64,000 bases of DNA from Psammoneis japonica (lineage: Eukaryota). The translations under genes were made by a program, and so were the position numbers. Below are positions 49,426 through 63,122 of this stretch, in pieces (position 1 is the stretch's first letter; each line of letters starts with the position of its first letter). The DNA lies in NCBI GenBank assembly GCA_008632985.1, contig QPGO01000170.1:62001-126000 (forward strand), given 5' to 3'. The notes beneath the pieces are model-generated. The model worked only from the letters and a program-made list of their open reading frames with translations. It had not been told where the DNA came from and made no database searches.

Positions 49426-52400
49426 CTACCGGAGCCACGGGTGATTCTTGATCTGCTCTAATGTCAATCGTTGAGCTGGAGCCGGTCGCAATACTTCTTG
49501 CATCAAATTCCTTGCGTCGCTGTCCAAGTTTTCAACGATCGCGATCATGTCGTAAAACTCAGTCATACACTGAAGTCGAGAAGAGTTGTCACCCTGCAGT
49601 TCTTTTTCCTTCATTTTCTTGTTTAGATTTGCGTTCGTTAAACCACCATTCACAATGAAATGGCGATAGATCAAATCGCACGCGTGAGGGATTCTGTAAA
49701 AGTGACGCCCGGTAAGCAAGCAAAACAAGACAACTCCAAGACTCCACACGTCTACACCGAAACCATCCACGTCGTTACACTGACGAAAAATTTCGGGGGC
49801 CATGAAAGCTGGAGTTCCAGAGACACCGACAGCCATGATTCCGTTGTCCGATTGCCGAACTTTGCGACTCATTCCCAAACCAATCAAGACTGGTTCCAAT
49901 TCATCCAACTGAAGTTCGCTGTCGCCCTCGAGGACTATGGCGTCATTTTTCAAATCGCAATGGCAAACACCACGCCCATGGAGCAAAGATAGAGCTTCAA
50001 CAAGCTTTCGGAAAAGGCTCTTCGAGTTGTGAGTGGCACCCTGAGCTTGACCTTGACCGTGTTCCTTCCTATTAATGTGGCTGCCAAGGTCACCGTTTCC
50101 GAGGTAGGGAGTCACGACATATGCATAACGATCATCTTCGAGAGCATCCACTAATTCAGTCGTTGGACTTTTCCCTTGATCGGAGTGAGTCATCAAGAAG
50201 TCCATCGCTGCAATCTCATTGTAAGGATTCTTACAACCTGATACTCTACCGCTCCTCCATGAACACCGAATACCAAGTGTACTACACCATCTGCGAACTC
50301 TTTTGATCACTACCATTTCCGCATCTTGCTCTGATGGCTCACGGAATGTAGGCTCCCCTGCGAGATCACGTCCCACAAACTTCAACGCCACTGCCTTGTA
50401 CAACTCTTTCTGACCTGAACGTCCAACGTAGAACGGCGCTGCCACTACAAGACGATACGCTTTGGGTGCACGATCTTCGTGTCCCGAATGGCTTTGGTAT
50501 CCGCTTGTCAAGAACACCTTTCTCTCCCCCTTTTCTCCTCCATCTTTTACTTCCCAGACCCGTTGATTTAACACGGCTCGACAAAGTTCGGGCTTCACCC
50601 AATCCAGTTCATCATTCTCCTGAAGCTTGGCCAAAGCGACAGTAACACGAGCCGGGACGTTAAAGAGCGCTTCTTCCTCCTTCTTGATACGTCCGATAGT
50701 TTCGCTCAAACGATTCTGGAGCTCGTGGGCTCTACCATAGTTCTTCGTCTGCACTGCTTCTCTGATGCGTATCTCCAACTTAGTCCTTCTTTCCTCGAGG
50801 TCTGTCAGAGACGGAAGATGGCATCGGAATCGATCAAGTTCCTCCAAATCAAAATCGAGCTGACATTCCAGAGCGTAGTCTACCTTTTCCCTGGCTTCCT
50901 GTAGCTTGGAAATTACAGTAAGTCTCTCTAGGTTGAGCATGACACGAGTCGTGTATTGGCTTTTTTCATACTCTTTCCTCCTTCCAAGCTCAATAAGATC
51001 CTCATACTGGCTTTTTTTCATCCTTTCGGCCGCGTCAGTAATGTACTTCGGGTGACCTTCTCCAATCAGAGAAAATATTTGAGAGCAACGAAAGGACATG
51101 GAGGAGCTGATCGCTGTCGCTTCAGCATGCGATTGGGGAACGAGTAAATCCGCCAGAGCTTCCGGTGTCTGGATATCGGAGCACACTCCCTGGAACACGA
51201 AGGGACACTTTGCCCCAAACAACAAGGCGGAGGATCGCATATTAATAGGACCTAGCTCCAAATGGAATTGAGTTGGCGTGACTTCATTCCTCAACACTTG
51301 ACCACATGGGTATTCAAGAACAACCGATACCCTGGATGTTCCACTAAAGAGAGCCTCGAGAAAGTCCGCTAACTTGGCAAAAGCACTGATAGAAGACATG
51401 CCACCTCCATCAATAAAGACGAGGGCCCTTTTTCCAGAGAGAATTCTGGCCAAACGCGAGCAGCACTGCTTATAGACATGACTATCAGACTTTACGTCCT
51501 GATTCATGATTGCATCAATGATTTCTTGAAAGCCACTCGACAACTTTGAGTCGTCACGCCCAAGGAACAAGGACGGAAGCCAATATATTTTCTCGAAGAA
51601 GAATGTGTCTCTACCTCTTTCAATGTACTCACAAGCCGCTCTGACCAGAGCGCTTTTCCCGGTTCCAGACTGGCCTGAAATTGTTACGAGTCTTGACTTC
51701 ATCAGCTGACGGATAACCGTATAGACCTCTTTTTGCCGCCCTAGAAATCCACTTGGAGGCCTCGGTAGCGACTCAGAGCTAGTCGCACTGGTATCTGGGT
51801 ACCGCTGAGATCTTCTTTCCTGTTCCACATTTGAAAGGTTCGAAGTGAATACCACCTCCGACTTGTTTGTGTCATCTTGAAGTAGAAGAAACTTCACCTC
51901 TTCTCCCGGGTGCCCCGCCTTGACAGCGGCTTTTGACATTTCAAATGCTACTTTCAGGTGCTGCCCAGACGCAAGCTGCATGTAAAAGTTGCGGGTAAAT
52001 TCAATGGCAGCCGCATCTCTAACCTTTTGGCGACAACACACAACGCTTGGAACCCCAGCATCCAATAGTACGTTTCCAATCTTTTGCGACCAGCACGCCG
52101 AAACAAAGATGAGTCTCAAGTTTCCTTTGTTGGAAGCCACCACGTCCCTCAATTCATTTAGACACAGTGGCTGCATTGCCCCGTCGTTTTCTAACGGCAA
52201 ATACTCTTCGTGACCGTGACATGAGATGTGTAATACAGGATTGTTGTTGGAGGCAAGGGCCTCCAAGAGACGAAACATTGAAGCCACCTCAAACTTAACG
52301 TCTACCACACTGCTTAGAACATCCGAAAGCGTTGCTCTCTCACGTTCAAAATCTGGTGGAGGAGCAAATGGATGAATATTTTTGCTTCTGTCCATCCAGA

Positions 52401-62300: not shown

Positions 62301-63122
62301 AAGTGCCTGCCGAAACAACATGGTTTGTTCATTATCACGATACTGATTGTTTCTGACAAAGTCAGATACTCGACTCAAGCCTAGATCAAGCGCTTCTGGC
62401 AACGAGTCTACACCGCTACCAACAGTCGAGCGGCCCTTCTCCATAAAGCTCCATACCACGCCCAAAACTCGGATGCATTCTGATTTAACAACCAACAACA
62501 AGTCGCTTGCAACTTCAATCAAGAGAAACTTGATGAAAATAGCAAGAAGCTCACGAAGCGCAATAGTCTCAGGCGTGTCTCGATGGCGATTGTCACGGAT
62601 CTTTCGATTGATGACTCGATTCGAGAAATCAGCCAGAGTATCTTGAAAAGGATCCATATTCTCTTCAGTCTCTTCTTGTTCACCTACTCCTGAGGTACTT
62701 CTGTCCTTGTCTTCACGTAGGACTTGTTGTCTGCTTGAAATGTCTTGTTTGCTTGAACTGACTTTTTGTGATCTCTCGTTCGAAGAATCGTTACTGGCAG
62801 AGGGTCGATTCGTGCCTTGTTGATTCGTGCCCGGAATGGTTCCTGAATAAGCATGCAACTTGTCGCTGGTACCTGCATGCTCATGATGATCCTCGAATGG
62901 GATTGGAGAATTTTCCCTGTTTTGTCCGTTTTGAGAAGAAATGACACGATCCTCTTGGCGCTGATGCACTGATTCGTATGTAACAGTCCTTATGGATGGT
63001 TGTTCGCCTTGCTGTGTCAGAGCAGGGTGAATGCTAAGGGATACATCATCGGTATGTAAGGACGACGCAGAAGAGCTCTTCTTGTCGGTACAGTTTAACA
63101 CATGATCGTTATGATCCGCCAT
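59343..63122 (-). CDS. NLR-like protein 3, paralogue of protein 2 (3 apparent frameshifts)
   Basis: ORFs 61392-63131, 59938-61395 and 59552-60001 plus a tail to TGA at 59343; LHLSCQG, FLSACAS, GVPGIGKS, macrodomain. Confidence 0.82.

Follow-up and report, generated by a model that had tools for sequence, protein, structure and literature searches.

A stretch of 64,000 nucleotides from the diatom Psammoneis japonica (assembly GCA_008632985.1, contig QPGO01000170.1, positions 62,001 to 126,000; hereafter the window) carries three paralogous genes that lie head to tail on the minus strand inside positions 49426-63122. The proteins they encode share one domain order: two three-helix units, a CHAT domain, a STAND-like P-loop nucleoside triphosphatase (NTPase) with a GxP lid, and coiled-coil hairpins. 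Behind this common part they diverge, gene 1 ending in a kinase-like domain and genes 2 and 3 in a macrodomain. By analogy with known proteins of similar build, these are on balance probably protease receptors under the control of a nucleotide switch, acting in cell death, stress or immunity. The CHAT-STAND layout of the cluster appears to be undescribed in diatoms. A full-text literature search, which has most subscription journals outside its coverage, returned no account of a CHAT-NTPase family in diatoms or other algae.

Gene 1 (P0001; 49426..53634) is an uninterrupted open reading frame (ORF) of 1402 residues, with its ATG at 53634 and its stop codon at 49426-49428. Gene 2 (54492..57937; ATG at 57937, stop at 54492) and gene 3 (59343..63122; ATG at 63122, stop near 59343) are of the macrodomain type, and each is spread over four reading frames. 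A tblastn search of the whole window with gene 1 found these three copies only, gene 1 sharing 29-45% protein identity with genes 2 and 3 over the common part. Genes 2 and 3 are much closer to each other, with 90.3% DNA identity over 2752 aligned bases. Relative to gene 2, gene 3 has an in-frame insertion of 270 nucleotides in the N-terminal low-complexity region (62656-62925) and further in-frame insertions of 15, 90 and 12 nucleotides in a macrodomain loop (59715-59867), where a short peptide segment is duplicated.

An earlier reading of the same DNA (the original prediction) had described three intronless genes in tandem, joined by a doubled helical unit and a series of short motifs. The tandem arrangement is confirmed by tblastn, and the motifs (F.GR followed by G..G.GKS, then LGP.NMRSSA.LFG and IFS.IGEG.P) are readable in all three translations. 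No introns are present, although gene 1 alone is continuous, genes 2 and 3 being frame-broken in the assembly. The doubled helical unit can be aligned across the three genes, and Pfam returns the domains that had been expected, namely CHAT, a STAND-type P-loop, a kinase without key catalytic residues and a macrodomain.

CHAT (PF12770, cutoff 24 bits) is recognised above the cutoff in every copy: in gene 1 at 52.7 bits (E 5.6e-14; envelope residues 422-566, 51937..52371, minus strand), in gene 3 at 39.4 bits (E 6.5e-10) and in gene 2 at 24.1 bits (E 2.8e-5). A profile of the family also matches the solved CHAT protein 8tl0 in the PDB (E 1.1e-12). The catalytic His (..CHG..) and Cys (..SAC..) columns were assigned from the known CHAT and caspase motifs and are putative. 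Gene 1 keeps both residues, the putative catalytic His473 (..SCHGH..; 52216-52218) and Cys514 (..VSACWS..; 52093-52095). Gene 3 has Gln and Cys at these positions, the His being lost; gene 2 has Arg and Ser there and so keeps neither. The CHAT region predicted for all three genes is thus present throughout, but with its catalytic pair broken in two of them. Across the retrieved proteins (P0002-P0166, 165 in all) the His is found in 133/155 and the Cys in 139/159. Where both columns are filled, 129 of 155 proteins keep the pair, 16 have lost both residues, six have lost the His alone and four the Cys alone. P0004, of the macrodomain type and in one clade with genes 1 and 3 in the tree described below, keeps both, and loss of the pair in genes 2 and 3 is therefore local.

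The NTPase of gene 1 (residues 616-888; 50971..51789, minus strand) was delimited from an AlphaFold2 (AF2) model, structure matches, Pfam and motif conservation. Its motifs are an FLGR helix, a Walker A GQSGTGKS (51652-51675), a Walker B VFID (51409-51420) and the lid GEGHP (51049-51063); in genes 2 and 3 the Walker B residue is Glu. Of the motifs quoted above, LGP.NMRSSA.LFG falls inside the modelled span of nucleotide-binding domain (NBD) and lid, N-terminal of G.G.P, and IFS.IGEG.P is the G.G.P lid motif itself. In the helix that precedes Walker A, the Arg (hhGR) is kept in 150/158 retrieved proteins; the Pro of the GxP lid, a defining motif of STAND proteins, is kept in 141/142. In the P0002-P0166 alignment, Asp or Glu is found at the Walker B position in 139/154 and the Walker A Lys in 112/158 (Arg in 33, Cys in 8), and a sizeable share of the family may bind nucleotide without hydrolysing it. 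The three proteins with an N-terminal kinase P0053, P0067 and P0135 all have Cys in place of the Walker A Lys.

Pfam places the NTPase among STAND families, though marginally in the cluster itself: nSTAND1 reaches 28.1 bits in gene 1 (cutoff 27.1), with NB-ARC, NACHT and AAA_16 below threshold around the P-loop, and nSTAND3 reaches 28.5 bits in gene 2 (cutoff 27.2). Matches are clearer in homologues (NACHT 35.1 bits, nSTAND1 34.9 bits). Over 21 family members, AAA_16 was matched in 19, nSTAND1 in 13, nSTAND3 in 11, NB-ARC in nine and NACHT in seven; AAA_22 was matched in five and other generic P-loop models in one member each, and PF00004 was not among the matches. PADLOC gave no match on the CHAT region and weak ones around the P-loop (LmuB, 5.4e-5, in gene 1; mad8, 1.4e-6, and PDC-S73, 9.5e-6, in gene 3). 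The strong matches to PADLOC and NCBIfam were generic kinase and macrodomain models, NCBIfam matches in the P-loop region lying far below their cutoffs.

The AF2 model of gene 1 residues 600-1010 is a confident one (predicted local distance difference test, pLDDT, 90.7; predicted template modelling score, pTM, 0.85; 56 sequences), with the lid above pLDDT 90. When 48,161 chains were searched with VIA-align, the best match was Apaf-1 (1z6t; Z 12.6, root-mean-square deviation (rmsd) 4.7, 207 residues), model residues 11-287 lying on Apaf-1 107-347, that is, its NBD and HD1. Ranks 2-6 are likewise all STAND proteins: MalT (11.9), Avs5 (11.8), ZAR1 (11.7), CED-4 (11.6) and AVAST5 (11.6). Foldseek puts Sr35 first, in a list that mixes STAND and AAA+ proteins. 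In searches of the PDB, the family profile matches the plant NLR ADR2 (E 1.7e-4) and, at about 1e-3, Apaf-1 and Roq1. Structure alone does not part STAND from classical AAA+ proteins; the sequence evidence does. The STAND-type core of the original prediction accordingly stands in its P-loop, hhGR Arg, GxP lid and Pfam assignments, but lacks a winged helix and has structure scores tied with those of AAA+ proteins.

At the place of the STAND winged helix, the model of gene 1 has coiled-coil hairpins (residues 897-1009, model helices H298-410; 50608..50946, minus strand). These had been described as two UVR-like coils. Hairpins are indeed present, but the UVR label finds little support: Pfam UVR (PF02151) is missing from the coil regions of genes 1 and 2 at E ≤ 10, and at E ≤ 0.01 it is matched in 2/21 homologues (best 0.0039). 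A profile match to the M-domain of ClpC/MecB covers this region (E 1.5e-4).

The kinase-like domain of gene 1 (about residues 1060-1402; 49429..50457, minus strand) is matched by Pkinase (PF00069) over residues 1159-1401 and profile positions 61-263, at 104.8 bits against a cutoff of 31.7 (E 6.7e-30). It keeps the Lys of AVALK, the Asp of HCD and the APE motif. Its closest solved relative is CASK (E 1.1e-16), whose GFG aligns to GLG here, and judged by its residues the domain is an atypical kinase or a pseudokinase. Macro (PF01661, cutoff 22) is matched at 40.4 bits in gene 2 (E 3.4e-10) and 27.8 bits in gene 3 (E 2.7e-6). The macrodomains of both genes are MacroD/AF1521-like: that of gene 2 (54522..55067, minus strand) matches AF_1521 in the PDB (6fx7, E 4.6e-7), and O-acetyl-ADP-ribose deacetylase models of NCBIfam match it below their cutoffs. 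The kinase fold at the end of gene 1 and the macrodomains of genes 2 and 3, both seen in the original prediction, are thus upheld by Pfam. Ligand binding by either type of domain is putative.

The cluster belongs to a large family. When 1.84 billion cluster representatives were scanned by HMMER with residues 400-1080 of gene 1, 4183 matched at E ≤ 1e-3, of which 739 reached ≤ 1e-10 and 149 reached ≤ 1e-30, and most of the best matches span about positions 2-590 of the query as one block of CHAT, NTPase and lid. This block is found at the start, middle or end of proteins of 277-2977 residues. Named sources include the diatom Odontella aurita, the oomycete Peronospora destructor and transcripts of the Marine Microbial Eukaryote Transcriptome Sequencing Project (MMETSP), and from the last of these it follows that relatives are transcribed. 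A search for near-identical 8-residue words of the gene 1 core, which is blind to distant relatives, gave 23 pattern matches in genome contigs and 37 in metagenome contigs, none of them confirmed.

The domains around the block are variable. Pfam was run on 67 homologues, a non-random sample made up of the 40 best matches and 27 proteins picked for length or named source. Within it LRR_6 is the commonest accessory domain (17 proteins, always N-terminal of CHAT), followed by Pkinase (six) and Macro (three), with single occurrences of LanC-like, SPRY, HA, IQ and Arm domains. Pkinase lies N-terminal of CHAT in these homologues, unlike in gene 1, and Macro lies C-terminal. The Peronospora destructor member has the order FHA-CHAT-NACHT. 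In P0008 the CHAT-NTPase core is joined at its C-terminal side to a LanC-like domain (E 7.2e-51), a surprising companion in a receptor-like protein. The original prediction had kinase and ADP-ribose-binding domains replacing the usual LRR/TPR/WD40 sensor, which does not hold for the family at large given the LRRs of these homologues. In genes 1-3 themselves Pfam finds no LRR, and the NLR order of effector, NOD and C-terminal LRR is not seen.

A tree of the core was built with FastTree, a fast method, from 265 NTPase columns and 81 of 145 eligible rows (rooted for drawing only). Gene 1, with its kinase, groups in it with gene 3 and P0004, both of the Macro type (Shimodaira-Hasegawa-like support 99), and other Macro proteins and the N-terminal-kinase proteins fall elsewhere. 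This bears out the proposed swap of C-terminal domains among close paralogues and, more widely, points to repeated domain exchange in the family. A single-copy, invariant family with a housekeeping role had been named as the finding that would speak against a receptor locus; the family is instead multi-copy and variable in architecture. The cluster is best described as the product of a recent tandem duplication (genes 2 and 3, dS 0.26) and of swaps of C-terminal domains inside a single clade. In the spacer that separates genes 2 and 3 lie two degenerate relic copies of the 3' end (about 300 nucleotides) and downstream flank of a macrodomain-type gene (58419..59038, minus strand; 72% and 78% identity), which look like the trace of repeated unequal exchange and earlier duplications.

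After a low-complexity N-terminus, each protein has two similar units of about 80 residues that can be aligned across genes 1-3. In gene 1 (residues 124-304; 52723..53265, minus strand) they are modelled by AF2 as two three-helix bundles, six helices in all (pLDDT 75, pTM 0.72, with only three sequences in the input). Fold searches returned generic helical bundles only (best Z 9.6) and no Foldseek match below E 0.34; BLAST found no match among the 165 retrieved proteins, and nothing relevant was found in Pfam at E ≤ 10. A Death-fold or coiled-coil-domain reading is unsupported, the ZAR1 coiled-coil domain (Z 8.8) being tied with unrelated helical proteins. To judge from these searches, the units are a lineage-specific helical module. 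A complex prediction for the N-terminal units of genes 1 and 3 scored 0.00 against a mark of 0.34, without controls, and counts neither way on binding.

The frame breaks of genes 2 and 3 were located by base-level alignment of the two genes against each other. Gene 2 has a -1 break near 56826, a -1 break near 56494 and a -2 break near 56186; gene 3 has -1 breaks near 61417, 59981 and 59567. The remaining coding indels between the genes are all multiples of three. Introns are ruled out as their source, the breaks being indels of one or two nucleotides relative to the paralogue. They were compared with read-derived contigs from two public runs of one sample and one study, possibly the source of the assembly itself. 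For gene 1 and its flanks, a 7.6-kb read contig covers 49300-54981 with 0 mismatches. In gene 2, contigs of both runs have an extra base behind 56825, which lengthens a C run, and are longer by one base at 56490/56493 and by two at 56180-56187. For gene 3, the read contigs show a one-base insertion within a T run at 59561, the site of the 59567 break. Each inserted form accounts for the full depth at its site, and among the matches listed four of the six breaks are covered. The read-derived contigs thus lack at least four of the six breaks. It is unlikely that the inserted bases come from cross-mapped contigs of the paralogue: the contig at 56825 has none of about seven nearby differences between genes 2 and 3, and the base inserted there does not match gene 3. 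Outside the genes, contigs of run X1 have two bases fewer at 53753, in the noncoding stretch that parts gene 1 from gene 2.

Between genes 2 and 3 the ratio of nonsynonymous to synonymous substitution rates (dN/dS) is 0.30 (dS 0.257, dN 0.076, 1016 codons), and no stop codon lies inside any block. It follows that purifying selection has acted on both genes since their duplication. Because read contigs have the extra bases at four of six sites and dN/dS is 0.30, the breaks are very probably indel errors left unpolished in a duplicated stretch. Short-read polishing often fails in highly similar duplicated stretches.

Taken together, these features suggest how the proteins could work, drawing on what is known of STAND/NLR proteins and of CHAT/caspase proteases. 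The NTPase, comprising NBD and GxP lid, would hold the protein in an off state. A signal sensed by the variable flanking domain would lead to nucleotide exchange and oligomerisation, the sensor being the CASK-like kinase domain in gene 1, the macrodomain in genes 2 and 3, and an LRR, SPRY, FHA or LanC-like domain in relatives. Oligomerisation would gather the CHAT domains, which would then cleave downstream targets and produce a cell-death, stress or immune output. Such a protein would unite in a single chain the logic of an apoptosome or inflammasome. Gene 1, to go by its residues, has everything that these steps need: the His/Cys pair, Walker A and Walker B. Since their protease is disabled and their NTPase looks intact, genes 2 and 3 are more likely to be sensors, regulators or decoys than executioners. 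The original prediction had called the cluster an innate-immune or cell-death receptor locus. Its modular, multi-copy character and swapped domains are borne out by our analysis, and an immune or cell-death role is plausible from the architecture, as are switch behaviour, oligomerisation and activation of the protease.

Several observations weigh against a switch-controlled protease receptor. Genes 2 and 3 are without the catalytic His, and gene 2 also without the Cys, which rules out the protease mechanism as such for these two. In the AF2 model of residues 600-1010 there is no winged-helix domain behind the lid, and the STAND matches stop at about model residue 289. In known STAND proteins this domain helps to hold the ADP-bound off state, and the switch may therefore work differently here. 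ClpB NBD1 (Z 11.5), Cdc6/Orc1 (11.3) and ClpC1 (11.3) come within 1 Z of the STAND matches, and the family profile also matches the ClpC P-loop (E 8.5e-5) as well as the M-domain noted above. The gene 1 kinase lacks the DFG Asp (GLG) and the catalytic-loop Asn (HCDLKNDA, with Ala for Asn), and in gene 2 the GGG phosphate-binding loop of AF1521 faces ..SSQ.. in a poorly aligned stretch. Finally, the sites of two of the six breaks, near 61417 and 59981 in gene 3, are not covered by the matches listed, and both runs come from one sample that is perhaps the source of the assembly.

The Clp-like features could be taken at face value, making the proteins a non-immune machine in which a Clp/Hsp100-like AAA+ module with an M-domain-like coiled coil is joined to a protease and serves proteostasis, the cell cycle or development. 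The analogy would be with separase or HetF-type CHAT proteins, and the variable domains would only target the protein to substrates. We consider this unlikely, though two real departures from known STAND proteins, the lack of a winged helix and a coiled coil like that of ClpC, keep it alive. The P-loop and M-domain matches follow the order of ClpC, and ClpB NBD1 aligns over 282 residues, though at an rmsd of 19.6; PADLOC, with weak matches in the P-loop region only, has nothing to say for CHAT. However, the ClpC P-loop match extends over about 45 residues only, the families found in at least seven of the 21 members are AAA_16, nSTAND1, nSTAND3, NB-ARC and NACHT with PF00004 absent, and the GxP lid is near-invariant. 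Multiple copies, shuffled LRR, SPRY and FHA flanks, and tandem duplication with relics also fit genes in conflict better than housekeeping genes.

That gene 1 alone is functional, with genes 2 and 3 as decaying pseudogene duplicates whose frameshifts and catalytic losses are real, is improbable. Each gene does have three frame-breaking indels in the window, some of them outside homopolymers (e.g. near 59981), and the catalytic losses, the adjoining relic fragments and the two break sites without a read-contig check among the matches listed would all agree with decay. Yet contigs of both runs have the inserted bases at all gene 2 sites, and at one site in gene 3, at full depth and without the nearby mismatches that cross-mapping from the paralogue would give. 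The 1016 codons compared show the constraint given above with no in-frame stop in any block, and the errors sit in a 90%-identical duplicated stretch while the neighbouring gene 1 is clean.

A third reading makes CHAT and NTPase mere scaffolds for a C-terminal enzyme, a Mg-independent CASK-like kinase in gene 1 and NTPase-regulated ADP-ribosyl hydrolases in genes 2 and 3; the residues that the kinase retains, its nearness to CASK (which is catalytically active without Mg) and a MacroD-type macrodomain near AF1521 and O-acetyl-ADP-ribose deacetylases lend it something, but it is very doubtful when the CHAT His/Cys pair, kept in 129/155 members, speaks for a working protease as the conserved output, the C-terminal domains vary across the family and the AF1521 Gly-rich loop is not kept in gene 2.

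If the proteins are switch-controlled protease receptors, as we favour, the three genes could also divide the work between them. The protease-dead products of genes 2 and 3 might sense ADP-ribose-derived signals, or ADP-ribosylated proteins, produced during infection and co-assemble with gene 1 through the NTPase or the N-terminal units, the CHAT domain of gene 1 then triggering death. This is a speculative proposal to which we give little credence at present.

On the plus strand, a kinesin gene with a C-terminal motor (47524-49260; Pfam E 2.1e-83) converges on the 3' end of gene 1. The best named relatives of this 'kinesin family C2/C3' neighbour are proteins of the pennate diatoms Cylindrotheca fusiformis and Pseudo-nitzschia, at 59-60% identity, in agreement with the diatom host that had been proposed from the sequence. 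ORFs with HA domains elsewhere in the window also fit a diatom. Three minus-strand ORFs stand in a row there, with four HA repeats (31801-33003), a DUF7869 domain (34292-36634) and a DEAD/ResIII helicase with a C-terminal HA domain (36926-39244), and the DUF7869 ORF and the HA helicase may be parts of a mobile element. At 62843-63300 the depth of run X1 contigs is about 1950, against about 58 elsewhere, and several contigs end loosely at 63245-63260, as though a high-copy repeat set in a short way upstream of the gene 3 start. Among the large ORFs of the window that were scanned, many of them without a Pfam match, no gene was recognised as gasdermin-like or otherwise as an evident source of a substrate.

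Little is understood of how diatoms perceive viruses, bacteria and stress and of how they come to die, decisions with consequences for the collapse of blooms and the export of carbon. A large, diversifying family of CHAT-switch proteins with plug-in LRR, SPRY, FHA, kinase, Macro and LanC-like domains offers concrete candidate receptors. The layout is unusual in three respects: the protease is fused to the switch, the winged helix is missing and, in relatives, the LRRs are N-terminal. If the proposed function is correct, eukaryotes would have put together an NLR-like receptor independently once more, with a bearing on how receptors evolve by domain shuffling.

Among known systems, fungal CHAT proteins offer one comparison. 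HET-Q2-like CHAT proteins of fungi adjoin gasdermin genes, and some are NLR-like with a central P-loop NOD (PMC8851545). There, as in bacterial NLR-like proteins and in the cluster, CHAT is carried on multidomain proteins, and the mechanism proposed is that the protease, once activated, cuts a death effector (PMC8851545). Unlike in the fungal proteins, CHAT here lies directly N-terminal of an NBD and lid without a winged helix, there are no TPR, WD40 or ANK repeats, the C-termini are a kinase-like domain or a macrodomain, the host is a diatom, and no gasdermin-like neighbour is found among the large ORFs of the window.

The apoptosome is similar in its NTPase, which Apaf-1 and CED-4 match in structure (Z 12.6 and 11.6), and in the principle that an oligomerising nucleotide switch activates a caspase-fold protease, a principle that would apply here by inference. 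It differs in that caspase-9 and CED-3 are separate proteins recruited through CARDs, whereas the protease is part of the same chain here. Coiled-coil hairpins also follow the lid, where Apaf-1 has WHD, HD2 and WD40. In the type III-E CRISPR Craspase, the CHAT protease of TPR-CHAT (Csx29) is said to be inactive until a sensor module changes conformation. Activation in that prokaryotic system comes from an RNA-guided complex and not from a fused NTPase. CASK resembles the gene 1 kinase in having Gly for the DFG Asp and in missing the catalytic-loop Asn; identity is low, however, and the protein context wholly different.

Within the stramenopiles, a study of Ectocarpus describes NB-ARC-TPR and LRR-ROCO proteins as candidate pathogen receptors that are multi-copy and clustered (PMC3341825). 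The words 'CHAT' and 'caspase' do not occur in that paper, in which the switch is NB-ARC with TPR, or Roc-COR, and the repeats are exon-shuffled, unlike here (PMC3341825). The two cases are alike in being stramenopile receptor candidates that are built on a nucleotide switch and that occur in many, clustered copies.

Plant NLRs form tandem clusters, take up interchangeable integrated domains that include kinases, and divide sensor and helper roles between paralogues. The cluster departs from them in its effector and NTPase subtype and in its LRRs, which genes 1-3 lack and which relatives have at the N-terminal side. With plant NLRs that have integrated domains it nevertheless shares an arrangement of close paralogues in tandem whose non-canonical domains have been swapped.

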